A stretch of 47,500 nucleotides of DNA, the filler included, from Jimgerdemannia flammicorona (lineage: Eukaryota): assembly GCA_003990765.1 (NCBI GenBank). It is 2 parts of 2 records of this genome, joined end to end, with 100 filler letters (N's around TTAATTAATTAA, not from the genome) between each part and the next. Parts side by side here need not be neighbours in the genome. Positions count along the whole stretch, not along the records: positions 23,804 to 47,500 come from RBNJ01001077.1; 1 more part is not named here. One strand, given 5' to 3'. Every line of letters starts with the position of its first letter. Position 1 is the first letter of the stretch. Below, one piece after another: positions 21,640-46,914 of the stretch. The translations under genes were made by a program, and so were the position numbers. Under the pieces are notes generated by a model. It searched no databases. It saw only the letters and a program-made list of their open reading frames with translations, and was not told the origin of the DNA.

Positions 21640-21673
<34 letters not shown>

Positions 21674-23703: not shown

Positions 23704-23803
23704 NNNNNNNNNNNNNNNNNNNNNNNNNNNNNNNNNNNNNNNNNNNNTTAATTAATTAANNNNNNNNNNNNNNNNNNNNNNNNNNNNNNNNNNNNNNNNN
23801 NNN
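23704..23803. other. artificial contig-joining linker
   Basis: 44 N + TTAATTAATTAA (stops in all six frames) + 44 N = exactly 100 bp. Confidence 0.97.
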
Positions 23804-23806
23804 TTT

Positions 23807-23810
<4 letters not shown>

Positions 23811-23842
<32 letters not shown>

Positions 23843-26800
23843 GTCATAAGAACTTCCACTTTATTACCAAACTGTCTATGATATATAAATACAAATGAAC
23901 CCCTCACTCAATTCTACTTAGAAGCTCTCTCTCTCTCTCACCATTCTCCTAAAACACTACCACCCCATCCACTACCCCAATTCTCCCCCTACTTTTTCTA
24001 CAGATTGTCTCTACTAGTTATCTCTAATATCTCCCACCAATACCCTCACTCTGCCACCACTCATTCAACAGATCTGTCATCAGCCACTCCTATCTAGCCA
24101 CTCTCACCCCCAATATCAACCATTAATCCTCCTTAAATACTTATAGTCAATATTCTATAAGTTCAATCCAAATCACCAGCATCCATTCTAATATCAATTA
24201 CTCATCTCTCAGCCTCCCCACCAGTCTCCTCCAGAGGTCACCCTATCTCTCTCCTACTATCAATCCTAGTAGGTATACCCCTAGCTATATCTTAATAATC
24301 CTCCAAAAGTCACCCATCACCTCACACTCTCTTAACCAATATTCAGGAGTCTGTATCACTTCTCTCTCTTGCCTAATGTTCAGATACTCCTCACACTCCT
24401 GGGTATCTCCTTCCACTAAGTGATCTGTCTGGTAGTTCAATATCATATTATACTATAGAAGTCTCTACCATACTATCTCACCACCTACTTGCCCTATAGC
24501 CAAATACTGTTTCAGTCTCACTCTTCTCCAATCTCCACCCCCTGTTATACCTCAGGCTACAGATCCCTTCTATGCTTCTGGAGGCACTCTATACTATCCT
24601 CTAAACAGAAGTCATCTACTGATACCCTGTCCAACAGAAGGCAGTCCTATCTTCACATCTGAGGTCTCTATTTCTTCTCTCCCTCATCACTCCACCATCA
24701 GAGATCAATACAGTGAGCCCCATCAACCACTCTTCACTAGAATCCCTATAGTACATCCTCTGACTCCCCTCCAAAGCCACCAGAGATAGAAGATTTTCAG
24801 TCATATTATGGAGAGAGAACTGGGCCTCCCATACTCTCTATATGAGGGGAATCTACTCTCTATCTCTCAACTTGCTTACTTACTTTAGCCACCATATCCT
24901 CAAGCAATGAAGATATTTGGGAAAATCCACCAGACCCAGGCCTTCTCAGTTTACTGACCAGGTCAATACCTCCCAACTAATCTGACTCTGTCATCCTGCC
25001 CATATTCAGATCCTAGCCATCTTCAACAGTCACTTAATCACCTATATCAGAAAGTCTAAGTAGTACTCCAAATACTACAGCTTAGGTAGCCAGTATATAT
25101 TCAGCACTGTCACCCTCTCTGCTAGAGATATATAATGACCACTCCACTCCAAGAGAGTACTCCCTCACTCTGCTAACTACTGCTCTCACTATCTATGAGG
25201 AAACAATGAGCCATATACCAAAAAGTAAATCCCCAGATAGTAAATGGCCTCTCCTGTAGGGATAATTATTCCAATCACATCTCTATCTATAATCCCTTCT
25301 CTCAATACCAAAGTCTCACACTTATGCCAGTTGAGATTAGCACCTAAGTACTCCTCATATTACTCTACTATATCTTTTAGTGCCACAACATTCTCTGCTA
25401 ACTCCAGCCTAACTACCATATTATCAGTAAAGGCCCCAACCTTTCAATTTACCCCCAGAATGTCCAACCCCCCCACCTTTCACTGTATTCTATCTAAAAG
25501 AGGCTCTAGAGACAATACATATAGGATCAGTGACAGTGGATCCCTCTGTAGCACTCCTTTATTCAGAGAGAATAAAATTCCCCTATACTTATTTATCATA
25601 ATTGCTACCCAACTCCCTTCCAGCAGACTGATCAAAATCTGCTAGACCCCAGAGGGGACTCTAATACACTTTAGTATCCCTTTCAACCACACTTACCAGA
25701 CCCTGTCATAGGCCTTCTCTTGGTCCAAGAACACTAGCCATTTATCTACTCCAATAGTATAAGCTCTCTCAATGATACTATATACCCAGGCCATCCTATC
25801 TCTGATCAGATATCCCCTTATAAATTCTCTCTGCTCAGCCCCCAGAACTTGCTGAGCCACTCCTTGCAGTCTAGCCACTAGTATCTTTATGACTAGTTTG
25901 CAGTCTATATTCAGAAGTATAATTGACCTCTAGTTTTTCCACTCCTCTCTCCTCTCCTTATTCTTAAACAGCAGAGCCATAAGACTCAAGCTCTGCCCCC
26001 CAATCTATACTCCTGAGCTAATTACTTCATTATACATTACTGTCATTTCCTCCAGAATCATCTCAACTCCTACCATCTTCTTCCAAAAATCCCACTATAA
26101 GTCATTCTCTCCTAATACTGTTCCCAAGTTTATTGTCATCAGTACCTGCTGAATCTCTTCCCCTCAGATAGCAGCACTAAGGTCACCTAAGCTCACTGCT
26201 AGATCAGAGTACCATTTCTCCAAGTATCTGTCTATGTCCAGCACCCCCACCCTCTCATTCTCCTCACTTTACAATTATCTCCACTGTTTGCTCAACTGGT
26301 CCAGAATCTCTGGTATCCCAACAACCAACTCTCCAGCCTCATCCAAGACCCCCTCCCACTGCTGCCATACTCTCCTCACCTACAGAAGCCATAACAAAAA
26401 CTTGGAAGGTCTCTCTCTCTTCTCTATTACAGCTGGACCACTATACTCTTAATCTATAGGTTCTTCTCTTACCTCAGCATACTCTTCAACACCTCCACCT
26501 CTAGTCTGATCTACTGTATCCTCTAATTCTCCTTCTCACTATCATTTAAGAGATCTGCCTAAGACACTAGCAACCTTGTCAACCTCTGGAAGATTCATCT
26601 CACTCACTTCTTTCTCTGAGTACTCTACATCCTTCCTATCTCTCCCTAGTATCATTGTACCTCAGATTTCAATCTCTTCCAGAAATCTCCAATCCCCAGC
26701 CCCTCTACTCTCCAATCAGATATTCTGAAGCAAATATCTACCACTCACACATCTCATAAGGAGACCTCCCCTAGCAAAGAGATATTTAGATACTAATGTC

Positions 26801-29350
26801 CAGGCCCCTCCCCACTTCTCCCAAAACACCCCCCTCCTAGAAGACCCCAGTGATCTGACCACAGATACCAAATAGGTTCCAAAGTTCTCTAGATATCAAC
26901 TCCTCAGTATTCAGCAGTCAACATTCAGTTAATCCTTGAGTCCAATTCTACCACTCAGTGGATATAGACTCTATGATCCCCTCATTCAAGCCTCCCAGTT
27001 TCCACTAATGAGCTCAGATGTTTAACTTTCTCCCAGGCTTCCATATCACCACTCTTATCTACTATCTCCCTTCTCTCATCAGTTCTATCTATTTTTCCAT
27101 TATATATTATATTAAAGTTCCTCTCTAAATAGTCAATCTCTACCTTCATCAATACTCTAGACTCTCATAGCCCTTGAATCCATTTCACTCTCTCTCTTCT
27201 TTCTGCTGGACAATAACATAATTCAACCATCAAGGGCCTCTAGCCTAGTCTCTTTCAAACTCCCCACACTATCCTGCTCTCCCAATATTCAATGTCCCCA
27301 ATATCTCTCTTGTCCTTTTTAACCAGAATGTCTATATGCTCACACCAAACAGCCACACTACCCCATTCCTTTGTCCAGTTCAGAATATCCAAGTTTCTAT
27401 TACACCCAACATCCTGCAGTAGAAACAAATCTGCTTCCATTCTCTTTAGCCATCCAAAGATATTTCAATATCTTACTACTCCTTAGAGTCCATTGATATT
27501 CAGAGATAAGATTCTAGTTATTCTGTTTATATTGAATAATATTATTTAAAGAACAACCATCTACTCTACAATTCTATACTTACTACATTATCAGCAACAT
27601 CTAGGTTTCTCTCTACCTCAAGCTCATCTATCTCTCCCTACTGAGTCTCTAATGTCTCCAAGATCTCTTGACAATCTGCATCATCCACAGTCTCCATATC
27701 TGTCTAGTATTCCTTGCACACTATCTGCTACTTCACTAGCACTTTCCTCAGTCCTTATATATGCAGCCCTGTCATTTGCAATCACCAGAAGTACTGCTGC
27801 CCTGCTATCATCTACTTGATATATCTCAGTCTTTAGCAAAGCCACCATTATCTCATCTCAGAGTTCCTATAGCACCTCCTTGCTATGCAGGATTTCACTC
27901 CAGTGTCTCTTGCTCAGTATCTAAAAGTCCTCTTCTCTCAGCTCCTCAGCCACCATATTCTCAAGTATTTTCCACAGTCATTTCTCCTCATCCTCAGTCT
28001 CCACTACTTTCTGGGCTACCCTCTTTCCCCCTTCCACTGGCCCACCCTCTGTATTTCTTCTTGCTGACTTATTCCAATTCTCTTTCAGTATATTTTACAG
28101 TTTATCATCTCCTCTAGCCCCATCTGGCACTCTATACTAAGGGCCCTCTCTCTCTGCCATCTTTATATTCTCTATAATAACACTCAGCCCTGAGCCTTCT
28201 TCTCTTCCCAGAGTCTTCTCTGGTGCCACTTCCTTCTCTCCTGCCCAGGCACTTGCTCTCAACCCAGCTTCTTCAGTGACAGTCCCCCCAGCTGCCCTTC
28301 CTTCCAACTTAGCTAATAGATCCTTCTGAATACATCTCCTCTACACTCTCTCCCAGACTATCTAATCCAGTCACACTCTCTTATCATTTATGATCTTTAC
28401 TATTATCTTGACCTCAAACTTCTTCCAGACTAATCTTTTCCTCTTTATGGCCTCAGCCAGATTCTCTAATACCTCCAATAAGTCCTCTTTTTCCTTCAGT
28501 GTCTTTTTTACTCTTGAGACCTTATACTCCACAGGTCCCCATTTGAGAACTGCTAGCCAGTCTCTTGCTTTCTCTGTATTCTCCTTGTCTACTAGCTATA
28601 CTCTGATGTCCACATCTCTTGTTCTGAATTTTGTACCCTCTCAGACCCAAAACTCAATATCTACAATATCCTTATACTCCTTGATGGCCTCTACAATCAA
28701 CTCTTTAGCTATCTCCTTTGATACAATAGAAATATCCAATACTGTCAGCTATACTACTTGGGGATTCCAGTATAAGCACTAGACTATGGAGATTACTACT
28801 CCCCCCACTATCACTCTCTTTTCCATTGCTTCCAATAGCATATCCTCCTTTTCAAAGCCTATCTCCACCTCTTCCAGATTCTTCAAAACTTCACTAATGC
28901 TGCTATTTTCACCTCCTGGGCCAGAAGCCCCAGAATCATTCTCACTGTCACTATCAAGCCTTGGAAACACAATGTGACAACAAATTCTGACCTCAATTTC
29001 TTAAGTAATAGTATCACCACCAGGTCTATTATACTATCTGCCAAATCTCTGGACCTTGTACCTACTCTCTGTCCTAGTTCATCATCAACTATTATATCTG
29101 GATTTTTTTTTCCAGATTAGTAGTCTCCTTGCTATTAGTAGTGCTGCTCTCTCTGGTCACTACTCTCTTAGCCCTGCTGCTCTCTACTATAGGCCACTCC
29201 ATCAGACTCTGTAGCCCTTACTATCTCCTTGCCCTTCTTCAGCCAGCTCTCCAATCCAGTTATTTGATGTCTCTCTTTTATCTTATCTATAAAGCTCATC
29301 CTTCTAGTCCTCTATCTCTCAGTACTGCCTCCTTTTCTTCCATGTCCTCT
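23811..29350 (-). mobile_element. decayed non-LTR retrotransposon (APE + RT, L1/Tx1-like) with poly(A) tail
   Basis: Minus strand: APE motifs RILSLNINGL (~27515) and ADLFLLQDV; RT motifs LVFLDQEKAYDRVW and FTDNMVV; AATAAA at 23865-23860 then poly(A) 23839-23811. ORF1 relic ~27550-29300. Many stops; 5' end approximate. Confidence 0.9.
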
Positions 29351-29370
29351 AGCTAGCAAGTCCTGTATAC

Positions 29371-29545
29371 TTCCCCCCAAGCCATAACTCCTCCCCATAT
29401 ACTGTCAGTCAAATGTACTAGGGTCACTCTGCCCAGTATACATCTCAGAATACTTATTAGTTACTATATTGCTAGTACCTATTCTCCAAAAATAATATCT
29501 TGAGTGTTGTTAGAAGTTTGTATAACTTGAATATTATCAGAGAGG
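29371..29545. repeat. further fragment of the repeat at 5857-6035
   Basis: ttccccccaagcca...gtcaaat...gtcactctgcc.agtata... is shared with 5857-6035. Confidence 0.75.
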
Positions 29546-29855
29546 CTGACAAGGTCCTTGCTAACTCTTAATATATCTATTTATCCTATTACTATTATTA
29601 TTTATAATCTTAGACTATGGAGTAATAGTACTGAATATATCTGACTTTATTACTATATCAAGCTCACCAAAGCTATCAAATAGTCTCTGGCTCTCATTTC
29701 TATATACTAGACTATTATATATATCTAACTTTAAGTATAATAGAGACCTTTTCAGCACTAAATTCATCTGCTGTTTCTACAATGTTACCAAATATCAGAA
29801 AAACTAACTCATAGTCCAAATAGCTTTCAATAAGCTCTCTGTTACCTAGAATAAT

Positions 29856-30036
29856 ATCTCTATCTATAGTAAATTTACCTTTAGAAATTATAACTGAGAA
29901 AATAGATCTAGGGGCAATCAATACTCTAACTTCTATAACTTCTAATTTAGGAGTTATAGAAGTTAGAGTATTGATTGCCCCTAGATCTATTTTCTCAGTT
30001 ATAATTTCTAAAGGTAAATTTACTATAGAAAGAGAT
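29856..30036. repeat. near-perfect palindrome, 90-bp arms around a single base (29946)
   Basis: 29856-29945 is the reverse complement of 29947-30036, with 2 mismatches seen (29941/29951 and 29862/30030). Confidence 0.95.
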
Positions 30037-30378
30037 TAGTACTTCCAAACAAATTGAATCAATTCAAATCGAATTGAATTGAGGGTCATTTGAATCAAAT
30101 TGAGGATCTGATTCAAAACCTATTTTTAGAAATATAATAACTCAACAAATACACATCCAAATTCAATAATCTTTAGCTTGTTAGATTCCCCTATATAATA
30201 GGAATCTAACAAGCTAAAGATCATTGAATTTAGATGTGTATTTGTCGAGTTATTTAATTTCTAAAAATAGAGTTCGAATCAGACCTCAAATTGAATTGGG
30301 CCTCAATTCAATTTGAAGTTTTCAAATCAAATTAAATTTGGGTCCAATTCGATTCAATTTGATTCATTGGGGGCACTA
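30037..30378. mobile_element. palindromic MITE, hAT-like (copy 1)
   Basis: Termini tagtacttccaa...ttgggggcacta, long internal inverted arms centred ~30195, subterminal (t)tgaat/attcaa repeats. Homologous to 45321-45663. Confidence 0.85.
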
Positions 30379-30419
30379 CTCCTAATAAAGCTCTCAGTAC
30401 TATATCTATAGCAATTAGA

Positions 30420-33400
30420 TGATATACTTGGAGATTATTGATAGAAGGTGAGTCTATATTGACAAGGGGCTATGAGGTTATAGGAGATAGAGAGAGTTGC
30501 TGGTGAGTCTGGAGGTGAAGAAGATGAGAGCTACTAATGAAAGTAAGGATGCTGGAAGAGCTTTGGCAAGTGTCTGGACTGGGAGATAAGGGGAGAATAT
30601 GGAGGTGGGTCTGGAGGAGGCCAGGAAGGCACTAGGTGAGGACCCATATGAGAATAGTATATTCAAAGTCTGGGAGCAGTCTCCTATATCCACTCCTCTT
30701 ATCAGGTAGGGACTGGCTGTGAGGGGCCAAGTAGTGGAGGATGTGCCCATATATAGTGCTCAGTAGGTATACTTTGGGATTCCTGAGATAGAAAAAGGTG
30801 GATAAGTAGTAGTAGTTAGTGAGAAAGAACTGGTAGATATCCCAGAGGAGAGATGAATGAGGCTGCAAGTATGGGGGAGGATATCTCAATACTGAGTAGA
30901 GGATAGCCTGCAATCTCTGAGGGAAAGAAAGTGGGGAATCTACTATAGATGTACTGGATGATAAATAACCTTATAGCTGAGGAACTAGGAGAAGTGGATC
31001 TAAGAGTGATAAGTGATGAGTACTGGGTAAGGATCTTGCATAATGATAGAGTAGTAGAGATATTAAGAGCAGAGGTACTAGTAGTTTTTCTGGAGGAGGA
31101 AGAGTATGAGGTAAACAAGGAAAGGGAGGCTGAGCTGGCAGTTGTTGCTGATGAGTGAGCCCTCTACTACTGGGAAAAGTATCATGGTTTACAGCTCTAG
31201 CAAGAGGCCTGCCTGAAGTATTATGAGGATTTTGAGAAAAAGGAGGATAGGGAAATAGCCAAGCTACTGGAGAGACTAGAAACTAAGAGAACTGAAGAGG
31301 AGGCAGTGTCTGCTAAACACAATCTGGACTTGGCAAGAGAGGTGAGGGATATGAAGTAGAGGATGTGTTTTCAATTCCATATATTTCTTATGAATAGTAT
31401 AACTAATATTTTTTCTCTCAATGTGAATGAGTTATGGGGTTCATATTGGTATTAGAATATTTTTGCTTGGCTGAAAGAACTGAAGGCAGATCTCTTTCTT
31501 TTGCAGAATATCAGATGTGAGGATGATTTGGATAGACTGGAGTGGACTAAGAAATGGGGAGGAGAGGCTATATGAAAAGGCAAGGTGGGGATTCTGATCC
31601 AAAGAGCAGAGGAGAGATACAAAAGGTAAGGAGCTGGGGTGACAGACTAGTTTGGAGAGAGTGGATTTGAGCAGGTTGAGAGCTAGCTATGGTGGGGTCT
31701 TACTACTGTCCTACTGTATGGGAAGAGTATGTGGACTGGGTGAAGGGCCTCTAGGAGAGTGGGGCCCTTACAGAGACTAGAGTGGATATACTTGACAGGG
31801 ACTTCAATATGGTCTGAGATATATTGGTGGATAGAACTGATGGAGGAAGGGGGGCTAAGGGTCAGAGTGGAGGTCTGGAAGTATAGGAGGAGGTAGAGAG
31901 ACTGAGTGCACTGGTGAATACTGGTAGGAGATTTTGAGATAATAGGAGAGTATACATGTACTGGGCCAGGGATCTGGAGATGAGAATTGACTGGGTTTTG
32001 ACTGCAGACTACTGGGGATTGGATATCTGAATATCACTAAAGGTTGAGTGGTGTCTATGGTCTGATTATTAGAGATTGTTAGGATAAGGACATTTTGGGG
32101 AGAGTGGAGATGGGCCTGGACATTGATGTCTAAATTTCTCTTTATTGGACAATAAGGGGCTGTGGGATAAGTGGGCTGTGGAAATTCAGCAGAGGGTAGA
32201 GAATTGGGTATAAGAGGGGGCTAATATGAATATCAGGTGGATGTGGCTAAAGAAGACTACTAGGGTCTACTGAAGAGAGGCTGGTAAGATAGCTGGCAGA
32301 CAGAAGAGGTGACAGGTGATATAGACTTCTACTAGACTGACTTGGCTTCTGGAGGATGAGACTGAACTGTTGGCCCTAGAGGGGGGGGGGGAGAACTGAC
32401 TATTGTTGTGGGTACAGAAGGAGGTTGAGGAGCTGTAACTAGTGGTAAGAGAGGAGGGGAAGGTACAGGTACAGAGTCTGGTGGCATGGTTGTATTGGCA
32501 GAGACTGGAGAAAGGAAAGAGGCCCTCTAAGTTCCTCATGAGGGCCCTTTAGGTAAGGAGAGTTCAGCAGAGGTGGGAGGGGGTATTGGATGCTGATGGA
32601 CATCTGGTGTATGGCATACAAGATATTCTCAGATTGTTAAAGAGGAAGTGAAGTAGTCTGTAGAGTGAGGAGGAGGGGGGGGCTGATGAGGCTGCCATTG
32701 ACCATACTTTGGAGGACTGGCACTTGCCACAGGTGGGAGGAATGGACAGCCTGGTATTGCTGGTACAGAAGGAGGAGATTTGTCAGGTTCTTGCTACAAC
32801 TTTACCAGACATAGTACCAGGAGAGGATGGCTTGCCCTAGGACTTTTGGAAGAAGATAGTGGGAATCTCCAGTATGCTAGAAGAATTGATAACAATATAT
32901 AACTTAGTACTAGGGTCAGATAGATGGGTGGGTGAACAGAATCTGAGGCTGGTGACTCTGCTCTATAAGGATAAAGGCAGGAGAGAGGACTGGAGAAACT
33001 AGCAGCCAATCATATTGCTGGATATAAACAGGAAGCTGGTTACTAAGTTAGTGGTAGTGAGGTTGTAGAAGGTGGCCCAGTAGGTATTGGGAGAGGAGCA
33101 GCAGGGCTTTGTAGATAGCTGGCTCATTAGAGATGGCACAGCTTGGATATATATTATTATTGAGAGGGTATCAGCCTGTGGACTAGATGGGTACCTGGTT
33201 TTTCTAGATCAACAGAAGGCATATAACTGTGTCTGATAGGTATGGTTGGCAAAAGTCCTGAATAGGATTGTCATCTCTCAGTTGTTTCAAGTGACAATTA
33301 TCAGTCTATTGGAAGAGAGTTGAGCAGTACTCATATGCAATGTGTACTGAGGGGGAGCTTTTTCTCTAGATAGGGGGGTCTCTCAAGGGGACCTGCTGTC

Positions 33401-35065
33401 CTCCATTTTGTATATACTCTCATTGGAGCTGTTGATGAACAGGATTCAGTAGAAGATAATAGGGCTCTCAGTATTGAGTATTGGATAGAAGGTTGGAGTC
33501 TTTACAGATAACATAGTAGTTGACCTAGAATCAATTGCTAATGTGGAGAAACTTAAGGCAACAGTAGAGTAGTATGAGGTGTATTCTGGGGCTAAACTTA
33601 ACTGGTACAAGTGTGAGACAGTGGTGTTAGATAATAGTCTGGTGGGAGGAGATATCATTGGAACAATTATCTCTACTAAGAAGGCAGTATGATACCTAGG
33701 TGTTTATATCTCAGTTTATGGATCAGTCTTACCTAGGGCTTGGTGGGAGCAGCAAGTTACAATCTAGAGAGAGGTCCTGCAGAGTTGGGGTGGCCACTAG
33801 TTGTCTCTAGCTAGGTATATTTCTATTTTGAATATCTACTGACTACTGAAGCTGTGATATTTGGCTTATTATCTAGACTTCTCAGTCTGAGTGGTGAAGC
33901 AATTGTTAAAACTGGTTAAGAGTTGGATCTGGGCTGAGAGGAGAAGTCAGATTAGCTAGAAAATCTTATCTCTGCTAGTTGCTAAAGGTGGTCTGTGGCT
34001 GGTTGACTTTCTGAAGAGACTGTACTTTCTGAGAGTATGGTGGTTGAAGAGGACAGTGGAGCTGAGAAATAGTAGCTGGGTTCTCCTGATGAAGAAGGTC
34101 TGAGAGATGAGGTCCTTACCAAGAGACTCTATAGGTGATCTACTGTCCTTAGTCAGACTTCAGAACAATAGTCATATATAGTATAAGGAATTCTGGTAGG
34201 AGGTTGTAGATAGAGCATATTGTATTAGAATTCACTAGCAGGGAGATGAAGGAGAGATGCCTTGAAGCCCTACAATATAGAGATGGGACTATATGCTATT
34301 GGGGGGTATCTCATTACTATTACTTAATTTTGATATTAGTGATAGAATAGAGTATCAGAGGGGGTTAGGACAGGGATTTGTGGCCTAGTAGATGGTAGCA
34401 GATAGATATTAGGGAGGAGTGAGATTGGAATGGGGTCTGGGCCTGGAGTATAGAGGTCAGGTGATGATTGCCACCAAAGTACTGGGTGGTCTGGTGATAC
34501 TTATTGCAGAGAAATGTCATGCTCAACTTTTACTTAGGCCATCTAGTTGAGGGAGAAAACTTTGACTGTAAGGAGTGCTATAATGTAGGGCAGGAAGGGG
34601 GTTTTGTGCAGATACCTAAATATTGGCTAGGAGAGTGTGAGATACTTGGTGACTTTTGATTAGAGGTTGAGCATCAACTGAATATTTTGTATAGGGGAGT
34701 TGATATGAGGGACTGTTGGGAGGATTTGTGAGATAGATTGATAGGGGGGATTGGGTTGGAGTGACTTACTTTAGATTGGATTATAGCTGTATGAGTGAGT
34801 TTAGCTGATCACTAGTTATTTGTTTTTAAGGATGAGAGGAGACTAGGATTGAGGACATGGTTGCTGAGATGGGAAGGGCTGATGGAGGACATCTTGATGA
34901 GCTAGTGGCTTGGATGGGGTCTATAGAGTGGTTGGTGGTATAGTTTGGTTGAGAAAATCTGTAGACAGAGTGGGGGAAGAGTTGGGGTAGTGGGCAAAAA
35001 AGTATATTTCAAGTATGAAGGTATAGAGGGAGACCCCTCTAGGGGGATTGAATAGTGGGAGGAGG
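30420..35065 (+). mobile_element. decayed LINE related to 23811-29350; its 3' end is displaced to 39565-39639
   Basis: APE motifs IFSLNVNEL (~31410) and ADLFLLQ; RT motifs LVFLDQQKAY (~33196), SQGDLLS (~33381), FTDNIVV (~33501). 5' boundary approximate. Confidence 0.9.
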
Positions 35066-35565
35066 AGAGGAAGAGGGCCCAGTGAGAGCCAAGGGAGTGA
35101 ACCCAGAGCCAGTGTCAAAGCAAACGGAAGATATGTGGAAGAGTGTGTATAAGGGGGACAAATAAAAAATGTAACCAAAAATGCATCAGCCATTTATTGC
35201 CACATAAAAACATGGTCCTTATATACAAAATATGACATCCCAAAAGGGAGAATGTGCCACAACTCGGGGCGAACCAAATTAGGAACCATATGATTGCCGG
35301 AGATAGGTGGAGATAAAGGGGGAGCCAATCCCAGTTACAGGATAAAAATCACAAACAAACACAAACAAAACAAATCCAAATCAAGATTAAAAAACATCTG
35401 CAGACCCCGGAGGGGTGAGCGTGAGTGAGGGGTGAGGCTGAAACGGAGCGAGCCGCAGCAAGCCCAAGTGAAGCGAGGGGCCGAAGGCAGTGGAGGGGAG
35501 CAGAGTAAGGCCAAGACCCCGGAGCGAGTGCAGGACCCCGGAGGGGGCAAGGATGTTTTTTAATC
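35066..35565 (-). repeat. PLE 3' pseudo-LTR
   Basis: Direct repeat of 38736-39236. It begins at the RT stop codon and runs into the first ~22 codons of ORF1. Confidence 0.93.
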
Positions 35566-37614
35566 CTCTCTGGCAGAACCGGAGGCACCAGAAGGTGACG
35601 AAAATGCAAAACGAGAGTGATGGATTGAAGAAGAGACAGAAGGAAGACATGAACAAGCAATCAGAGGGCATCGGGAAAGAGACGAAAGTCCATGGTATGA
35701 AAGAGAAGAGCGCAGGACAGTATCAGAGCATTGAGCAATCCAGCGAGCACGATCAAATGGTACGATGAGAATCAGGGGTGGGAAAGAAGAGGGGGTATGG
35801 AGAGGGTAAGGGGGGAGAGAGGGAAGGGAGGGGGGGTAAAGGGGAGAGAGCAGGGAAGAGTGAACAACAGACCATTCAACAGAAGCAAGCAGATTGCGAA
35901 TGATAGAAATAGGGTAGGCACAACAATGGACCACAAAGTTGCCAAGAACCCAAACAGCAGACACCCAATCAGAACGATGGGAGCAGCATAATGCAAGATG
36001 ACGAGCCTCACCATGAACACATTCAAGAAGAGTGCGATGAGGATGATTGGACAAGAAGTCAGGGAACTGTTGGGAATGGGAGAAATGGGAATAAACAACA
36101 GTTCGGAAGGGAGAAAGAGAAATGGAAAGGTCCAAAAAGGGAATACTAGTCATACCGCACACTCAAGTAATAGAATGATGGGGAGGGTAGATGCCCAAGA
36201 ACACACTAGGGATATCAATGCCAGTAACAGCAAAGACAATAAAGTCATCAATATATCAGTGAAAGAAGATATCCCCAGCCTGGAATGCAATGGAAAGAGG
36301 TGAAGTAATATCACATAACACACGCAATTCATGGGCCAGGCCAACGAGGTTGGCAAGGGTGGGGGCACAATTTGTACCCATGGCAATACCAGAAGTCTGG
36401 TGAAAGGAGCCAAGGGCCGACTCAAAATAATTAGAGCTGCAGATGAGGAGCATAAGCTCAACAATGGAAGCCAGCAAAACTGGGGAATCCAAAGGAAAAA
36501 CCAAGAAACCCAAGAAGCGAAGGCAATCATCAATCTCATCAAAATGAATAGCAGTATAGAAGGAAGAGAAGTCACCAGAGGCCAAATGGGAAAAACGGTG
36601 AACAGGCACAATGGTGGAGCAGAGAAGGGCAAGCTCCTGAGTATCATGAAGAATAGTATACTCAGGCCCAAGATGGTGTTGTAAGAGAGCCATCCAGGAG
36701 AGAAAGAAGCAGGATAACCACTTCGAGATCTCGGTGGTAGGAGAACTGTAAGCAGCCATAATAGAATGCCAAGCCAAAATAGGCTTGTGAACCTTAGGAA
36801 GAGTATAGAAAACCAGAAGAGAAATATCTGGGGAGGACAAAGAGTCCTGGAAGAAGTTAAAAATAGGGTTCGCGAATGGAGAATCCAAAAGCAATCTAGT
36901 GTGAGCCAGAGAAACCCGAAGAAGAATGAGAACCTCATCTAATCCAAGAGCACTAAGCTTGTAAGCCATGGCTTGAAGGAGGGCAGAAAGGCCATCAAGG
37001 TAGAGTGACTTAGGAATAAGTGCAAAACCCTGATTCTTATCAGTGACTGTGAGCAAATACATAGGCAATTGCTTGACCGATTTAAGCATGGTACACATGG
37101 CATGGTCTGAAACCAAGCAAGAGTGAGCTCGTCTAGGAATGAACAGCGAGCAAGCCATGTCGAGGAATACGCAGTGTGAAGAGACATTGGGAGGGGGGAC
37201 CCAATCGCTAGGAATAAAATAGCAAGAGGGCATCTCACCACGATCTTGAAAGAAGATGGCAAGATCAAGAGCATGATGAAAACATGTTAGACGAGCTGGA
37301 TCAGTGAAGGAGAATTGTGAGGGAGTCGCAGGAAAAACAAAGCGAGGACCCAAGGATAAGGCAAAGACTTGAAGGGGAGAAAGGGGGCAGTCAGCCGAAG
37401 AAAAAGGAGGAGACAAAAGAGTTCCAAGAGAAGAATAAACCCAAAAGTTTGAGACAAGCAACTGGGAAAGACGAAGGGTGGACAACATGAGGAACCACTC
37501 AGGGCACACCAGAAGCGATGACGGAATCCAAGAAGGGACAGGGACACCAGAGGAGAACCATGCCAGGGGGAAGTTTAAGAGCAGGAGGCCTTCCCCTTCC
37601 CTCTGACTTTTTTT
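35560..37614 (-). pseudogene. Penelope-type reverse transcriptase, two in-frame stops
   Basis: TDKNQG, FYTLPKVHKP, GDFSSFYTAI, FHQTSGIAMGTNCAPTLAN, H*YIDDFIV (TGA 36256-36258 in place of the R of RYIDD), second TGA at 36163-36165, PFLDL, SNHP. ORFs 36256-37644 and 35560-36162 share a frame. Confidence 0.92.
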
Positions 37615-38805
37615 GAAGGTGGCGAGCCCGACGAATGGGAGCACACCCCATCAGAGTGCCAGACCTTGTGGCCACAGACTTTCGTGCAGCCCTTACATTC
37701 AGGGGTATGGGTGGAGGAGGCGGAGGAGGAACCAGCAGAGGAGGCTGAAGGTGAGCAAGCAGCTGAAGGGGCAGCAGCACGAGGAACACCACCATGAGGA
37801 CAGACAGACTTGGCCGGGTGCCAGTAGGCATGGTGGAGGTGACTGGAGCAGACAGCGCAAGGCCAGGCCCTGACAGGGTGAGAACCAAGTTGGCGGCCAT
37901 ACTTGGGGGCAGGGGGAACAGAGGAGGAAGCCTTGGTGGGGGAGAGGGACCGAGAAGAGACTGACGAAGCCTGGTTGGGCTTGGCAGGGGTCTTAGCGGG
38001 GTCTTGGAGGGGGCCTTGGTGGCAGCAGCGGTGAAGGAACAAACCTTGGTATGAGCAGCGGCATGAGCTTTGGCACAGATGGCCTCAGAGACCAAAACCT
38101 CGAGAGAGGTAGGCAGGGGAGCAGTGGTGGCGGCACAAGCAGCGGCAGCAGTATGTGATGACTCCTACTCATGAAGGCGAGCAACGAAAGAGGTGCCGGT
38201 GAGGAGGAAACGACATACAGTGTCAATGTCGGCGGTGATAGAAGGAACATCTTGGATGGCGAAGCCACAGAAGGAGGCAGCATCCAAAAGGCGGGAGGAG
38301 GCAAAGGCCATGAAAGCGGCACAGGCATATTAGAAGGAGGCAGAAGTGGTGGTGGCAGAAGCAGTGGTGGCATCAGTGGCAGTGAGCTTGGCGGTGGCAG
38401 TGGTGGCACGAACCTCTTCAGAGAGGGCTTGGCAGCGGGCCTCAGAGAGAACAGAGTAGCGGATGGTGGGCAGAGTGATGACATCAATGTCACAGTGGAG
38501 ATGTCACGGCGGAGATGAGCCTCCTTGGCGGAGAGGGCAAGAACTGACCGGAACTGAGAGAGGAGCAGATGACCAGAAGGATGAAGGTCCAAGGGGAGGA
38601 AAAGGATGGCAGAAGAGACATAGGTCTCGAAGGAGACAGTGGCAGGGGTGAAGGCAGGGGGAGGGGGAGGAGGAAGTTCCTCACCCATGAGCTCGTTGAC
38701 AAGGACGGAGGCCCCGAGGGCAGGCGATACAGCAGAGGAGGAAGAGGGCCCAGCGGGAGCCAAGGGAGTGAACCCAGAGCCAGTGTCAAAGCGAACGGAA
38801 GATAT
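37575..38805 (-). pseudogene. PLE ORF1 (gag-like, about 400 codons, twin Cys/His motifs)
   Basis: Reconstructed across a 14-bp tandem duplication (38490-38517), a 1-bp deletion near 37998 and two stops. Start is ATA at 38805 here but ATG in the inverted copy (39487-39489). Confidence 0.65.
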
Positions 38806-39564
38806 GTGGAAGAGCATGTATAAGGGGGACAAACAAAGAATATAACTGAAAATGCATCAGCCATTTATTGCCACGTAAAAACACAGTCCTTATATACAAA
38901 ATATGACGTCCCAAAAGGGAGGATGCGCCACAACTCGGGGCGAACCAAATTAGGAACCACATGACCACCGGAGATAGGTGGAGATAAAGGGGGAGCCAAT
39001 CTCAGTTGCAGGATAAAAATCACAAACAATCACAAACAAAATAAATCCAAATCGAGATTAAAAAACATCCACAGACCCCGGAGGGGTGAGCATGAGCGAG
39101 GGGTGAGGCCGAAACAGAGCAAGCCACAGTGAGCCCAAGTGAAGCGAGGGGCCGAAGGCAGCGGAGGGGAGTGGAGTAAGGCTGAGACCCCGGAGTGAGC
39201 ACGAGACTCCGGAGGGGGCAAGGATGTTTTTTAATCTCGATTTGGATTTGTTTTGTTTGTGTTTATTTGTGATTTTTATCCTGCAACTGGGATTGGCTCC
39301 CCCTTTATCTCTGCCTATCTCCAGTAGTCATATGGTTCCTAATTTGGTTTGCCCCGAGTTGTGGTGCGTCCTCCCTTTTGAGATGTCATATTTTGTATAT
39401 AAGGACTGCATTTTTACATGGCAATAAACAGCTGATGCATTTTTGGTTACATTCTTTATTTGTCTCCCTTATACACACTCTTCTACATGTCTTCTGTTTA
39501 CTTTGACACTGGCTCTGGGTTCGCTCCCTTGGCTCCTGCTGGGCCCTCTTCCTCCTCTACTGTA
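38728..39564. repeat. PLE 5' terminus: pseudo-LTR plus fold-back copy (arms 38728-39070 and 39222-39564, 151-nt loop)
   Basis: Arms are reverse complements. The sense strand carries TATATAA, AATAAA and the ORF1 start. Confidence 0.93.
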
Positions 39565-39607
39565 ACTATATCTATAGACTGGTAATAAATGGTAAAGTCC
39601 AAGTGAA

Positions 39608-39639
<32 letters not shown>
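39565..39639 (+). mobile_element. displaced 3' UTR and poly(A) tail of the 30420-35065 LINE
   Basis: tatatctatagactggtaataaa + A29 resembles the 3' end of the minus LINE (tatatcatagacagtttggtaataaa + poly(A)). Confidence 0.75.
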
Positions 39640-39642
<3 letters not shown>

Positions 39643-41700
39643 CATAAATCAATTACAGAATACCAGATACTTCAACAATATGAATCTTTTTACAGAATTC
39701 CATAAGATTCCTATAGACCTCAAGGATATTCAGAAAATAGCTTTTCTTATCTTAAAAAAATTATTTAAATATCTCTGAATACCTTTTGAACTCTATAATA
39801 TACTTCTAACCTTTTAGAGAATAATGAACTCAGTCTATAGCCCACTGATCTACTATTGCCTAATTATATATATAGACAATTCTAACATCTATTTAGCAAA
39901 TTTTGAACTATATAGAAGAATTCTTTCAGCTTATCTATAAGAACTATCTGAGACTCAATACTAAGAAATGCTACTTTGGAAAACAGAAACTCAAATTTCT
40001 TAGATTTATTATTTCTAAAGAAGAAACTCATACAGACCTAAAGGAAACTGAGAAGATCAACAACTGGTCAATACTTAAGACTTTAAAGGAAATACTATTA
40101 TTTCTGATACTAGTATCCTACTATAGAAGATTTATTAAAGACTTTATTTAAGTTGCTACTCCAATTTAAATTCTTTTTAAGAAAAGAATACTATAAATAG
40201 ATGGAACTACAAGAACTAGCCTTTAGAGAACTTAAGTATTGTATAACCACAGTACTAATCCTTATATAACCTAACTGTAAAAGCTATTTATCTTATATAT
40301 ATATCTTCAAAGATAACCTTGAAATAGTCTTAGCCCAAGAAGAATCTGCCTAGTAGTATCATATGATAGCTTATATAAGTCAAGCTATAAACCAGCAGTA
40401 AGTCAATTATAGTAGCACTAAACTAAAATATCTTGCAGTTATATAGATAGTTATCTTGTTTAAACACTATCTTATTAGAAAAAGATTTACTTTAATAACT
40501 GATCATACTGTCCTCAAATAACTATTTAACTATAAGAAATTAACTAGAATTCTTGCTTACTGGATTCTTACTATATAGGATTACAAAATCACTATCATTC
40601 ATAAAGCAGAGAAAGCCTATAACAATGTTGATATACTTTTCTACCAATTTTAATAAATCAGAAGAAGAGTATATTAAGAAATTATATCCTAAAGAAAGTT
40701 TTACAACTGCTAAAGCACAATATCTCATTCAACAAGAATACCAAAAAGCCCACTAAGGACAAGTAAATATAGAGAAGAAGCTATAAACAATATATCAATA
40801 CTGGCTCTATCTCAGAATATAAGTCCAAGATATACTTAAGAAATATAACACCTGTCAGAAGTATTAAAAAAAGAAGAACTACCAAGTACTACTACAACCA
40901 ATTACACTACTAGTCTACATCTTTCAAAGATGGGAAGTAGATATTATTGGACTTCTGTCAGTTATGTATATCAAGAAGAAACAAATATATCTTAGTATTT
41001 ATAGAATATCTGACCAAATGGCCTGAAGCTTTTAGAATAGAAATTACTAATATCTTGACTATTGTTGGTCTCCTCTATAACCTTATACTCAGATATAGAT
41101 CTCTAAAAGAACTTATTTCTGACTGAGGTACAGAATTTATCAATAATATCATTATAAGTTATACTCAAATTTATAAGATTTATCTGAAATAAACTATATT
41201 ATACTATCTTCAAACTAATGATATGATAGAATGAATAAACCAGATCATCAAGAAAGGACTTACTTGAGTCAATTCTATCAATTGGGACCTCTGCTTATCT
41301 GAGATCTTATGGAAAATTCAGAATATCCCTACTATCTCTACTAAAAAAAAGTCATTCAAGATAATATTTACCAAGAAAGCCAGAACTACTGACTATGAGA
41401 ATCTTGGAGATCTCTTCAAAAAGACAGAATAATTATATAATCAAGCCTGAGCTCAGATAATTAAGGCTAAGGAAAGACAAAAGAAGTACTATGACCAGAA
41501 GCAGAAAGATCAGAAGATCAAGATTGAAGATCAAGTATTAGTTTGGAGAAATATAATCAAAACAAACTTTACTATCAAACTAAAGCCCAAATAGAAAGAA
41601 TCTTATCTTATATATGATATTAGAGGAATTAGTATCTATTTAAGAAGTATATATATATAGATAGATGTACTCTAAGGACCCCAGTTTATATTAATTATCT
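39640..41700 (+). mobile_element. heavily decayed Ty3/gypsy pol (RT, RNase H, integrase)
   Basis: FKYL*IPFELYN (cf. MPFGL), YIDN (cf. YIDD), FISYYRRFIKDF-like motif, FQRWEVDIIGLL, LISD*GTEF, YYLQTNDMIE (cf. YHPQTNG), KPK*KESY (GPY/F). Confidence 0.88.
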
Positions 41701-42542
41701 TAAGATATATCTATATACTACTTATATAATAAACTAGAAAATTGACCAGTATCTCCAGACTATTATTCTCAGTTTTTCTATACTCTATCAGTTCCCTTGT
41801 CTCAGTTCTGAGAAATAAATGGAATCTGTCTTCAATAGATCCAAATATATCAAGAAAACCTTATCTTAGTAAAACACCTATTACAGATTTACTAACTGCA
41901 GACCTATTATAAATTAGCCAACTACTGTAAAATATTTCAGCCCCAGAATAGACCTATATCTATAATATCACTGATCTGTCTCAAAGAAATACTATTACTA
42001 TAGATAGACTCTATACAATTTATAAATAAAATATTATAGTACTAATTCAGATCTAGTTCTCTCTAATGACTTTTAGAGAATGACCATATCTACCTTCCTG
42101 AGTATTATCAATTATATTAAAGTCCTATTCACTGAGAAAGAGAAAGAGCTACTAGAATAGAGTAATTCAGATATTGGAGAAGATAATGATATATGTAGGT
42201 ATAGATACTGAAGATGCCTATAGATATCACAATAATAACTAAAGGACTGTCTGGAGATAGACTACTCTTTAGTAGAGACTGATGTGATGAGTAAATAATA
42301 TATGTAGTATAGCCAGATAATATAAATACTCAATATAGTATAGCTATCTATAATATATACTACTACTATAATTAGCAAAGTATTATATCAGATTTATTGA
42401 TCCATATTTTAAGAATATACCTATTCTTATCAGACATACTTATATCTACTAGATATACTTGTATCTATCAGATACATATACCTATACTTACTAGATATAT
42501 ATATCTAGTTATCTCTTTCTCAAAATAGTATTATTATATATT

Positions 42543-45175
42543 CTATAGTTAGTTATATAGTAATTAGATAGTAATCATAACTGTATAAAATATCCTAAAG
42601 ATTTAAGTAAATAAACCTAAGTCTGAAATTGAAATCAAAAAGCAAAAGATAAGTCTATCTATTATACTTTGAGAGATATACTTACCAAGAGCTACTTAAT
42701 TTAGGAAAAATTATAATACTTAGAAGAAATATCTACATTAAAGTCACTTTTAGAAGATTGTAAGCTTGATGTCCTTTTTTACTCTAGTCTACTTTCTGAT
42801 ATAAAGAAGAGAAGTTTGCTTTATTCAAAAAGTCTGCCAATTCAGGAAACATCTGTGCTAACTCAGTAATCTGCTAATTTTGAAAGAAATTTATATTATT
42901 TAAGTTATTTGCCAAGAAGTCTACTATTTGAGAAAATTCTATACTATTTAAGAATTTACTATCTAATTAGAAAATTGCCAAAATCATCTACATTAATAAG
43001 TACTTTTAAAATATTTTATTACTTTTTGACAAAGTAACTAAGAGCTCAAGCTAATCTATATAGTAGCTCTAATCTTATAATTTGTCTCTATTGAGTTAGT
43101 ATATTATAATATCTATATATAGTTATATATATTATATTTTAGTAACTATAACTATTAGTTAGAAATTCTGTTAAATTTCCAGAAGCTTGTAGGTCTGTAA
43201 TAATTTATTATATATACTTCTTTATATATCTTAGAATGACTAAGTATTAGATAATTTCTATCTAATATATATATACTATATCTAGCTTCTCTGATAGATG
43301 TCCTATCACTCCACTATATTATAATAAGAATAATACTATATTAGATCTAAATAACTATTTAAGAAAGTTTACTTACTCTTTAATATTCTTTATTATATCA
43401 AGATAATCTACTATACTGAAATAATACTATATATTAAAGAATAATAATATATCTATTAAAAAGAAGGCTACTGAGAATTATTTATCACTATCAGAAAATA
43501 ATTCAACTACTAGATAGTAGTATATCATATATCTTTAAGATATTTTAAAATAGTATAAGATTTTATTTATTAGATATTATTTTCTTATTAGTTATCTATA
43601 TAGATTTAGCAAACTTAATATCTCCTATATTGTGTGAAACTTTGGTCTCTTAATATACTAGATTTCAGTAATTTTTATTTATCTTTAGTTTGTTTAGATG
43701 AGATATCATCATAAATGTAATAGTTTTATTTATCTTTAACTTCTTTTATTAAGATATCATTATGAACTTAGAGAGTCTGATTATCAACATATGTACTATA
43801 CTAAACTTTGATTTTACTCTCTCTTTCAGATAATATACTATACTGAATTTCTTCTTTTAAGATATTATATCACTTTGTTTTAAAATAATATATAAACTAC
43901 TAGATAAGTTTTATATATAGTTTTTGATATATATATAATATATCAAACTTTAGTAATTTGCTGTTTTTGATAATTTATTAGATAATGGTAATATATTATT
44001 TATATATTCTTTATTATTATAGTTAGTCTTATCAATAGTTTCCAATAAATAAGATTAGTCTTATGATATCATTGAAATGACTTCTTTAATAGTTTTAATT
44101 TAAGCTATTTATTTCTCTAATATTTTTAATATTATATCTCAGACCTCTTTATTGTCTTTATCTTATAGTTAGGATTTTATAAGAAAGGTTTACATAATGG
44201 TAAAATAAAAGAAAAAAGATCTCAACAAATAGATAAAAAGTTCAATAAATAGAGAAAAAACTTAAAAAATGTTTATAGAGAGAATTTTATTATAATAGAG
44301 TTTAAAGTAATTTGATTTATATAATACTTATCAATATAATAAGATTAATTAATTAATTGATTATTATAGATAATATTTTATTAGCAAATAGTGATAATTT
44401 ATTACTAGATAATACTTTTTTACTAAGTGATAATTTGTAGTTAAATAATGACTTACTACTGTGGACTGCTAGATAATAATTAATCTTACTGGCCTTACTG
44501 AGAGTGATAAATAATTATAGTAATAATTAGCTTTAAGAGATAATTATTGTAAATTCTAAATTTAATTTTATTATAACTAATTCTTAAGGACTTGAAAGCT
44601 ATATACTATAATATGTTAACTCAATAAAGGTAAATTACAAGATTGATGCTACTATATATATTGGCTTAAACTCTTAGTTACTTTGTTAAAAAGTAATAAA
44701 ATGTTCAATATTTTCTTATATATATAATATAGATAATTTTAGTAATATTTCCTAATTAGGTAAAATTAGCATAGTATAGTAGATTTAGCAGTTTTTTGAA
44801 TATTAATAGTCTTCTCAAATGGTATAGATAGTGGTAATTCTCAAAATAGTAGTTAAGTTCTTTACTTAAACTTTTAGTAGATAATTCAGACTTAATCTAA
44901 TAGTAGATCAAATTGACAGACTTCTTTATATCAGAAAGTAGACTAGAGTAGAAAGTAAGCTCATAACTTTAGTAGTAGCTTATTGATAAGTATATATATC
45001 TCTTAAATATTGCAATTCTTTTTAGATTAAGTAGCTTTTGGTAGATATTTTTCCTAAATATATCAGATAATTGGCTTTTGCTTTTTGAACTTTTTAGACT
45101 GAAGTTTATTTACTTAAATCTCTAAAGTATTTTATATAGTTATAGTTACTATCTGATTACTATAACTAACTATAG
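42543..45175. mobile_element. decayed DNA transposon-like element with ~160-bp terminal inverted repeats, unclassified
   Basis: 42543-42700 matches the reverse complement of ~45025-45175 (ctatagttagttat...gatttaagtaaataaac...caaaaagcaaaag...agctacttaat). Interior is very AT-rich with no readable ORF. Confidence 0.7.
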
Positions 45176-45320
45176 ATTGATATTTCTGATAATATTTAGC
45201 TATTTCTATTGAAAATATAAATCTCAAATTCTAGTATAGTATACTAGCTAGAAATGTTTTGTATTCTTATTTAACTATCTAGGTTATTTATACAAGTTAG
45301 TATAGTAGGGTAGTCCTGGT

Positions 45321-45663
45321 TAGTACTTCTAACAAATCAAATCAAAGGTTCAATTTAATTTAATTTAAATTATAATTCAATTTAAATACTATTTTTTAAA
45401 ATATAATAACTCAATAAATATATATTCAAATTTAATAATCTTTAGCTTATTAGATTCTCTATATAAGATAAATCCAATAAGCTAAAGACTATTAAATTTG
45501 AATATATTTTTATTAAGTTATTATATTTCTAAAAATAGGGTTCAAATCAAACTCTTAATTTGATTCAAAATTTATTTAAATTGAAAAATCTCTAATTTAA
45601 TTTAATTTGAATAACTCTTAATTTGATTTGATTCAAATTGATTCAATTTATTTAGGAGTACTA
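45321..45663. mobile_element. palindromic MITE, hAT-like (copy 2) with 8-bp TSD
   Basis: Termini tagtacttctaa...ttaggagtacta. Flanks gtcctggt (45313-45320) and gtcctaat (45664-45671) differ by two G/A transitions. Confidence 0.85.
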
Positions 45664-46130
45664 GTCCTAATTATCTAATACATCTGATATAATATATGAC
45701 TAAATTATAAAGATTAATTTAGATGATAATTTAGTATGTTTCTCTGTTAGCTTATTATAATACTTATATTATATATATATATCTCTTATTCTATAAGTAT
45801 TTTGCAGCTAAATTTAGTTACAAAAAAGTTAATTTAATTTAATTTAATTTAATTTTAATTATATATTTTTTTTTTAACTTAATATTTATTATGAAATTAT
45901 AAAATATATATATAAATTTAAAAATTTTAATGAAAAATAAAAGCAATTTTTTTAGTAATTTAATTTTAGTTATAACTAATTTTTAAATTTAAATAAGAGA
46001 GAGTGTTTTTTTATAATATAAGTTATAATTTCACCACTTTTATTAAGTATAATAGTTTTTAAAAAAAAGTGATTAGTTTTAGAGATCTAGTAAAAACTAA
46101 AGAGATTTTAAGTTAAAGTATATTTAAAAG

Positions 46131-46164
<34 letters not shown>

Positions 46165-46443
46165 TATATATTCTGAGTTTTATTTATAAAGATAAAGAGA
46201 ATATTTATATAAGTTTTAAAAGAAAGATCTAAAAAAGACTTAAAATTAATATATATATTAAGATATAATCTTAATTAAGAATGATAAATAAAGTTCTAAA
46301 ATATTCTATAAGTTTCTATAACTAGCTAATATAATCATATTGAGAGATATTTAAAAAATACTAAAATATTATAAAAAAAAAAAAAATAGAATAAGAAAAA
46401 TATATATAACTAATTAAGTAAACTATACTTAAATATTATAAAG

Positions 46444-46563
46444 AAGAATGAGAAGAATGAGAAGAATGAGAAAAATGAAGTGGGTAAGGAGAAGAATGAG
46501 AAGACTGAGAAAAATAAAGAGAATAAGAAGACTGAGAAGAATAAAAAAACTGAGAAAAATGAG
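46444..46563 (+). repeat. degenerate 9-bp tandem repeat (aagaatgag)
   Basis: aagaatgag, aagactgag and aaaaatgag units seen directly. Confidence 0.8.
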
Positions 46564-46914
46564 TAGGTCAAGAGAGATCAAGAAAACTGACTACTGTATA
46601 TAGAATCACTCGCTCTCTACAAATCACTTCTCTTATTATTTTTGATTTTTTTGATGACGGGGAAGGTTGGACATGGGGGCAGCGGGGTCGAATATGAAAC
46701 GTGTGGGGGACATCCAAAATTTTGTTTCACCTGCCCCAAATTCTGGAATCCCACAACCGCGCGCGAGGGGGGTCAAAACTAGTATTGATAAGTTGGCGTC
46801 TTCCACGTAGATTTCAAGTGTCGTTGGTAACGAGGCACTCTAAAATACGTCGACCAGCGCTTAAGGGCGGGCACGGCTTTGTGGTCGGTCCGGGCGCTTA
46901 ATAAATTCGGACCG

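Follow-up and report, generated by a model that had tools for sequence, protein, structure and literature searches.

Transposons of the fungus Jimgerdemannia flammicorona lose their cytosines by C-to-T transition in a fixed order of contexts, CpG far ahead of CpA, followed by CpC and then CpT, until TA-rich relics remain. The pattern was seen in a stretch of 47,500 nucleotides from assembly GCA_003990765.1 (the window) and in relatives, elsewhere in the genome, of the transposons that it holds. It is restricted to repeats, deepens with the age of the element and resembles repeat-induced point mutation (RIP) in its outcome, not in its trigger. A probable cause, judged from sequence, is the methylation of transposon cytosines in CG and CH (non-CG) contexts by DIM-2-type enzymes, followed by unrepaired deamination. 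The original prediction had proposed MET5, the gene for the sulfite reductase beta subunit (16190..21328, plus strand), as the species marker, and had seen little of note in the pattern should the host be a dikaryan. Residues 1000-1700 of the open reading frame at 16190-21328 are 100% identical to a J. flammicorona protein, and the next named match, from Bifiguratus, reaches 78%; on this identity the host belongs to Endogonales (Mucoromycota) and not to Dikarya. The assembly, split into 35,354 contigs, totals 231 Mb.

The window joins two contigs, C1076 (1-23703) and C1077 (the remainder), by a linker of N's with a 12-base spacer (23704..23803), which is artificial and not biological. The repeat block lies past the linker. 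It begins with a decayed minus-strand long interspersed nuclear element (LINE; 23811..29500, inner end approximate), which is the left element of the CpG-free block, has a poly(A) tail visible as poly-T at ~23808-23838, and matched RVT_1 at E 2e-16 once its stops were translated as X. Then follow a palindromic element resembling a miniature inverted-repeat transposable element (MITE; 30035..30385), a younger copy with 4 CpG kept; a decayed plus-strand LINE of endonuclease-reverse transcriptase layout with zero CpG (30400..35050; RVT_1, E 2e-15); a young Penelope-like element (PLE; 35052..39569, minus strand), about half-way through its CpG loss (observed/expected ratio, o/e, 0.40) and carrying a reverse transcriptase (RT)-like reading frame at 36256-37650; a decayed plus-strand gypsy pol fragment (39640..42500; GC 0.28, zero CpG; RT_RNaseH, E 3e-17); an old low-copy element with long inverted repeats (42542..45176); and an older copy of the same MITE family (45330..45665; GC 0.15).

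The old blocks contain no CpG at all over ~17 kb: 0 against 199 expected at 23840-30030, 0 against 177 at 30400-35050 and 0 against 87 at 39640-46440, in total 0 against ~463, which bears out the near-zero CpG that had been claimed for the LINEs. Genes and intergenic DNA of the window have a CpG o/e of 0.86-1.18, the highest value being that of MET5, a CpG-rich control as well as the host marker, and on this comparison the predicted restriction to repeats holds. The claim that host genes stay CpG-rich is correct as to these values, but the genes lie on the other contig; since the linker joins separate contigs, they do not physically adjoin the repeat block. A control on the repeat-block contig is the CpG-rich DNA at 46611..47500 (o/e 1.08, GC 0.50), which begins at a sharp boundary: the next CpG after 39522 is at 46611. 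Intergenic DNA has a GC content of 0.45-0.50 and a CpT o/e of ~0.95, against 1.5-1.7 in old transposons, and is therefore under a pressure unlike that on the old transposons, the comparison being one of composition and not of substitution spectra. Damage is uneven among the repeats. A minus-strand copia retrotransposon at 207..4670 (Pfam copia gag, integrase and SH3) has kept its CpG largely intact (o/e 1.06), and a second decayed block on the same gene-bearing contig (5001..8450) retains 2 CpG against 89 expected; parts of this block align to less-decayed copies with the same context order of loss.

Two further claims about the decayed sequence stood in part. TAG and TGA had been placed at Trp positions of the LINEs: in the RT frame within 32700-33900 of the plus-strand LINE, 8 of 17 stops are at columns that are mostly TGG in other copies, and the other 9 are at CAG or decayed CGN columns. 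Collinear motifs, claimed for the gypsy pol and for 42.5-46.4 kb, were found in the former (RT_RNaseH), and 42501-45300 gave no Pfam match in any of the six frames. A sliding composite RIP index was near or below zero over the LINEs; it is misleading there because CpG loss itself generates CpA and TpG.

Substitution spectra were obtained from the best matches to each window copy, not from a random sample. Thirty loci apiece were taken for the PLE repeat (from 1096 candidates, giving 52 repeat copies), the PLE body (485 candidates), the LINE (6638) and the MITE (2298 at first look), and 29 relatives each for gypsy (1370 candidates) and copia (630 candidates). The ancestral state was inferred for each column, with a 10% threshold for the LINE, and the long terminal repeat (LTR) elements gave pairwise tallies only. 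C>T changes per cytosine at CpG/CpA/CpC/CpT amounted to 27/4.5/2.2/1.6% in the PLE repeats (52 copies), 20/3.1/2.9/1.9% in the PLE body, 38/14/6/2.4% in the MITE and 61/28/19/10% in the family of the 30400..35050 LINE (30 copies each). In the LINE, A/T>G/C change was 0.7% and rare transversions were 0.68%, so that CpA loss is computed at ~48 times and CpT loss at ~15 times the transversion rate; the predicted mutator acting beyond CpG is most plainly borne out here. Compared with its 29 relatives, gypsy showed pairwise losses at CpA/CpC/CpT of 51/43/22% with 2.3% transversions, the order being tested for CpH (H, any base but G) only. The CpG-rich window copia served as a near-unmutated partner, from which its nine closest relatives differ at 44-65% of CpG, 21-39% of CpA, 8-24% of CpC and 6-16% of CpT, with 5-9% in the reverse direction and 1.6-3.0% transversions. 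Thus five families share the order CpG >> CpA > CpC > CpT with low T>C and transversions, and the CpG hazard is ~7 times the CpA hazard. Narrower preferences were tried and rejected: CHG, as CAG against CAH, CTG against CTH and CCG against CCH were similar or lower; TpCpG, as TCG is the lowest CpG context (15% against 34% for ACG); and a CA-only process in the CpG-rich copia, whose own losses were CG 44, CA 12, CC 12 and CT 20.

The predicted age gradient is real, as judged by transversions taken as a clock independent of C>T. Transversions rise from 0.12% per copy in the PLE to 0.68% per copy in the LINE, 2.3% pairwise in gypsy and 5.4% pairwise in the older MITE, and CpA loss climbs in the same order (3-4%, 28%, 51% and 75%). 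The two MITE copies of the window make the same point within one family: against 29 partners each, the younger shows CpA differences of 27% and 1.3% transversions, and the older CpA 75%, CpC 59%, CpT 15%, T>C 3% and 5.4% transversions, values by which a difference of intensity rather than age was rejected. Element type probably matters as well, since gypsy is decayed above, and the MITE family below, what the clock alone predicts. Between copies the C>T load is 7.6-fold overdispersed relative to binomial expectation, and the paired repeats of a locus tend to carry similar loads (rho 0.73, 19 pairs). Its relation to CpG loss in the flanks is weak (rho -0.45, p 0.036, 22 loci; for the MITE, rho 0.36, p 0.049, 30 loci). 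The best relative of the intact copia is 82% alike among the 40 scored of 630 candidates, and the element itself has three in-frame stops and zero frameshifts; it appears to have inserted recently, or to be lightly methylated, next to a block that is fully decayed.

The young end of the gradient is best seen in the PLE. All differences between its direct repeats had been described as C/T or G/A, and all four of the quoted examples are present in the alignment. In the alignment starting at 35060 and 38731, 47 of 49 differences over 501 columns are transitions; the remaining two are transversions, one of them at the alignment edge. About 33 of the differences are at CpG or former CpG, the remainder at CpA, CpC and CpT. 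Trimmed to 35067..35565 (copy 1) and 38738..39236 (copy 2), both on the plus strand, the repeats are 90.8% identical, with 45 transitions and 1 transversion in 497 columns, and a third, inverted copy (39222..39564, minus strand) differs from copy 2 by 33 transitions and 1 transversion. The label PLE is provisional and comes from the repeat layout and RT motifs. A Pfam search of the element gave zero matches; its protein neighbours in the ESM Atlas, at 0.94-0.96, belong to clusters with DUF8422 and RVT_1 on some members, which may serve as leads. At many loci of the family (L001-L030, L041-L070) an inverted terminal-repeat copy lies 151 bases past the direct repeat, and several contigs carry two whole elements in inverted orientation to each other.

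The base before the cytosine gives a further order. At 545 CpG sites in the 20 longer PLE copies and 52 repeats, loss follows ACG 34.2 > CCG 23.8 > GCG 21.9 > TCG 15.3%; the intervals of ACG and TCG are separate from those of CCG and GCG, which overlap each other. Methylcytosine as the substrate is favoured by two independent orders, the 3' order CpG>CpA>CpC>CpT and this 5' order. On the explanation that we consider probable, DIM-2-type enzymes would mark transposons with the greatest density at CG, a lower one at CA and CC and the lowest at CT, the methylated cytosines would deaminate spontaneously to thymine, in vegetative nuclei or resting spores, and escape repair, and each copy would shed its cytosines singly over long periods, CpG first and then CpA, CpC and CpT, with TA-rich relics as the endpoint. 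Targeting would follow transposon identity or heterochromatin and not duplication per se. The premise, held earlier, that deamination of 5-methylcytosine (5mC) erodes mainly CpG is not supported for such enzymes: DIM-2-type enzymes are described as methylating CA and CC (PMC8016269), and methylated CpA as turning into TpA where it is left unrepaired (PMC11564873).

Candidate writers were found. Profile and protein searches identified three DIM-2-type genes, on contigs C8187, C11271 and C3657, with RFD/DUF7893, BAH and DNA_methylase matches; their nearest named relatives include proteins called Dim-2. All three carry motif I and ENV, and two carry the catalytic PC motif. The paralogs are mutually only ~30% alike. 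The N-terminal exon of the C11271 gene, in which DUF7893 and RFD are present, matched only PDB 9baq/9baz/9bap, presumably Neurospora DIM-2; a search of this exon type against longer proteins gave zero matches, a weak negative. A BAH profile search gave 3 raw matches on 2 contigs. Methylase matches on C58/C2181 and C1744 were rejected as further candidates and read as two DNMT2-type genes, and motif patterns for RID/DNMT1 and DNMT5 gave 17 and 7 matches, which on translation were one DNMT2 and otherwise not methyltransferases. The gene search that had been proposed thus yielded the three DIM-2-type genes and, as weak negatives, no RID, DNMT1 or DNMT5.

A true analogue of RIP, with a homology-triggered C>T process striking any duplicated DNA in the sexual cycle over many mild rounds, is improbable. 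It accords with C:G>T:A change that is transition-only and confined to repeated DNA, with CpA leading the non-CpG contexts. It also accords with the copia without close relatives being the least damaged element and with a load that is overdispersed and shared within a locus, observations for which age and chromatin neighbourhood account equally well. RIP, however, hits duplicates longer than ~400 bp and above 80% identity, and host duplicates of more than 85% identity were intact. An HSP70 pair, 92-95% alike overall and 92% over ~1.9 kb, has a CpG o/e of 1.03-1.12 and differs by 67 transitions and 33 transversions. In a kinase-like family, with paralogs at 78-98% identity, all 40 scored matches are 78-100% identical over most of 537 bases; 35 of them were recovered in a profile search, 33 without stops, and each of the five pieces examined has an open frame and a CpG o/e of 0.63-0.99, the four closest differing by 219 transitions and 83 transversions. 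This family (C470:27498-28034 and relatives; 572 PF07714 candidates at first look) is a large, recent expansion. An all-against-all search among the retrieved loci for further CpG-rich duplicates returned mostly transposons. Strand-coordinated bursts of mutation within one passage are another feature of RIP; here C>T and G>A are interspersed randomly along each copy (z for runs +2.3 and +0.2; p for strand balance 0.63 and 0.91), a picture that very many very mild rounds might also leave. Nor are CpA and CpT the main target, young copies having lost 20-27% at CpG and 3-4.5% at CpA. Neither the profiles PF00145 and TIGR00675 nor a DIM-2 domain query nor a motif pattern revealed RID, a weak negative in a fragmented, intron-rich assembly and with no RID query, and a survey counts 37,472 repeat hits in the species that reach 1 kb or more with 95-100% identity (PMC12543289). 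Most of the tests of membership in RIP that could be run thus failed, and of the two options in the original prediction, homology-targeted and methylation-targeted mutation, the former founders on the spared host duplicates and the latter appears the better fit.

With the same targeting, the conversion itself might be the work of an enzyme: a DIM-2 paralog, several of them or a partner deaminase would actively convert the target cytosines as a RID-independent, probably mitotic, RIP-like mutator. We regard this as rather unlikely, but it would suit the very high ratios of C>T to transversions, the complete absence of CpG from the old blocks and the presence of three divergent DIM-2 paralogs, and a Dim2-dependent mitotic mutator has a precedent in Zymoseptoria tritici (PMC8016269). 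That mutator spares CG, however, and in the present data the 5' context at CpG fits unrepaired 5mC deamination, processive or strand-clustered runs are absent, and CpG loss shows no autocorrelation along the copies. That old neutral DNA underwent ordinary CpG decay together with a general AT-biased spectrum of mutation, or that sequencing or assembly created the pattern, is very unlikely and already largely refuted. This reading draws on the young PLE copies, in which rare non-CpG C>T (235/18179) exceeds rare T>C (77/21568) only ~3.6-fold, an excess within ordinary AT bias. Against it stand the LINE, with its CpA loss set beside the A/T>G/C and transversion values given above, the variation of the bias with the 3' base and the composition of intergenic DNA; artefactual damage would neither spare genes, track element age nor vary between copies.

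Several observations weigh against methylation by DIM-2-type enzymes followed by passive deamination. The ~3.6-fold excess in the young PLE copies is small, and the non-CpG case therefore stands on the older families. The main doubt is that the rates are very high for passive chemistry, the CpG hazard per C being ~200 times the rare-transversion rate, with the LINE CpA excess already noted, and this leaves room for an enzyme-driven mutator. Methylation data for J. flammicorona were not found in the literature searched. A motif-IV match was absent from the C3657 gene in the scan, and profile, protein and motif searches found neither DNMT1 nor DNMT5, weak negatives that leave the dominance of CpG without either enzyme. 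One UDG-family and three HhH-GPD loci are candidates for T:G repair, with the MBD4/TDG class unassigned. The spared host duplicates are coding, under selection, chosen as top profile matches and drawn from two families only, and in four of the five kinase pieces CpG is somewhat reduced (o/e 0.63-0.83), a mild reduction from which expanded gene families may be partly methylated. The flanks have a marginal effect on load, from which three of the 22 PLE loci clearly depart. Sorted by the preceding base, CpA loss runs A, G > C > T, with G raised, against AC>CC>GC>TC in the mutational signature SBS96 (PMC11564873), and the Z. tritici precedent fits in its methylation order, not in its mutation order (PMC8016269).

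Other features of the window were noted. The element at 42542..45176 (GC ~0.2) has arms of ~570 bp (42542-43115 and 44600-45176) that are 70.6% alike; on three other contigs, stretches of 160-1260 bases resemble its interior at 68-89%, and it was assigned no class. A near-perfect hairpin at 29856-30036 (90-base arms, 98% complementary, 1-base gap) lies within old CpG-free DNA and may be a recent palindrome, a case of arm conversion or an assembly artefact. At the border of the decayed block with CpG-rich DNA, 46433-46582 holds a 9-bp GAGAAGAAT-type tandem repeat whose units differ from one another by transitions; this may be where spreading takes place. Directly 3' of MET5 a 450-base CpG-free island (21600-22044; GC 0.22) is flanked by CpG-rich DNA on both sides; among the compared loci it gave only simple-repeat matches, and it is probably a small old relic. 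A coding tandem repeat at 9158-9718, with a 24-bp period and QQSVPAVA-like units, lies in a RhoGAP-like gene and has kept its CpG, with ordinary transition:transversion counts of 15:10 to 24:16; this short tandem host repeat escapes the C>T process.

Among known systems, Z. tritici is the closest in its enzyme. Its transposons carry Dim2-dependent 5mC in the order CG, then CA and CC, with nearly no CT, which is the mutation order found here, and its C>T change is likewise restricted to transposons; the Dim2-linked mitotic C>T, however, falls to >98% at CA with CG spared and rid present, whereas in J. flammicorona CpG decays ~7 times faster than CpA and RID was not found. N. crassa DIM-2, as described in the same paper, prefers CT (PMC8016269). 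MBD4-knockout human cells and SBS96 show the 5' order found here at CpG (ACG>CCG>GCG>TCG), and in them methylated CpA likewise becomes TpA when repair is missing; that signature is genome-wide and somatic, unlike the present pattern, which is transposon-restricted and also hits CpC (PMC11564873). RIP in Neurospora crassa and other Pezizomycotina shares the exclusive C:G>T:A change, the restriction to repeats and the TA-rich relics with nonsense codons (PMC12543289, PMC4352252), and differs in that here CpG goes first, host duplicates are spared, strand-coordinated bursts are absent, RID was not found and many near-identical repeats persist. Repeat-associated CpG loss ascribed to methylation and deamination is described from basidiomycetes, with a CpG-only bias, and from Tuber, with CpG primary and CpA secondary (PMC4352252); unlike the DNMT1/Masc2-linked basidiomycete form, the loss here has a strong CH component and only DIM-2-type DNA enzymes were found beside it. 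The hypermutation of Pucciniomycotina is also CpG-centred, RID-less and transposon-associated, but its TpCpG bias is the reverse of what we see, TCG being our least mutated CpG context (PMC3318451).

Nearer relatives methylate their transposons. Phycomyces blakesleeanus does so at CG and CHH, more in LTR than in non-LTR elements, LTR being highest (PMC11258239), and it and Rhizophagus irregularis are members of the same phylum with transposon-directed 5mC, the nearest matches being DIM-2-type homologues; the accounts available for both describe no mutational erosion, unlike that seen here (PMC11258239, PMC8647823). DIM-2 has been placed in Phycomyces and early-diverging fungi (PMC13297926, PMC7862722); the listing for Phycomyces gives a single DIM-2 and a single DNMT1, against three DIM-2-type genes and no DNMT1 found here. 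RIP signatures were reported as undetected in Mucoromycotina (PMC8647823), and J. flammicorona was scored 'no_rip' in a survey whose screen used scaffolds >50 kb and k-mer enrichment, not depletion (PMC12543289). The available text of PMC12574304 leaves RIP, methylation and CpG unmentioned. For the broader fungal group the loss of CpG may be known already, as the title of Clutterbuck 2017 speaks of CG deficiency with transposon hypermutation in 'some lower fungi' (reference list of PMC11451569). A literature search, with subscription papers including the genome paper outside it, found no published description of the pattern in Endogonales or Mucoromycotina. What is new, and in our judgement real, strong and well specified, is a transposon decay, probably methylation-linked, that is extreme in degree and extends past CpG in a lineage whose score was for no RIP.

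Surveys, as far as their available text goes, confine repeat-directed hypermutation beyond CpG to ascomycetes (PMC12543289), and reviews see Mucoromycota as mainly users of N6-methyladenine. A genome of Mucoromycota is now seen with total CpG loss and 30-75% CpA loss in its older transposons, with DIM-2-type genes and with RID undetected. Decay of the methylation type can yield an outcome the size of RIP without a penalty on gene duplication, and screens for k-mer enrichment can miss it. A role in defence is doubtful in a genome of 231 Mb whose examined families each number hundreds to thousands of candidate copies. The pattern bears on the question of whether DIM-2 enzymes are passive or active mutators. 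That Endogonales run a RID-independent, DIM-2-driven active mutator of all cytosine contexts, with three paralogs splitting the CG and CH work and no DNMT1, is a tentative idea that we think unlikely; if true, it would extend directed-mutation genome defence beyond Dikarya and might represent the state from which RIP descends.

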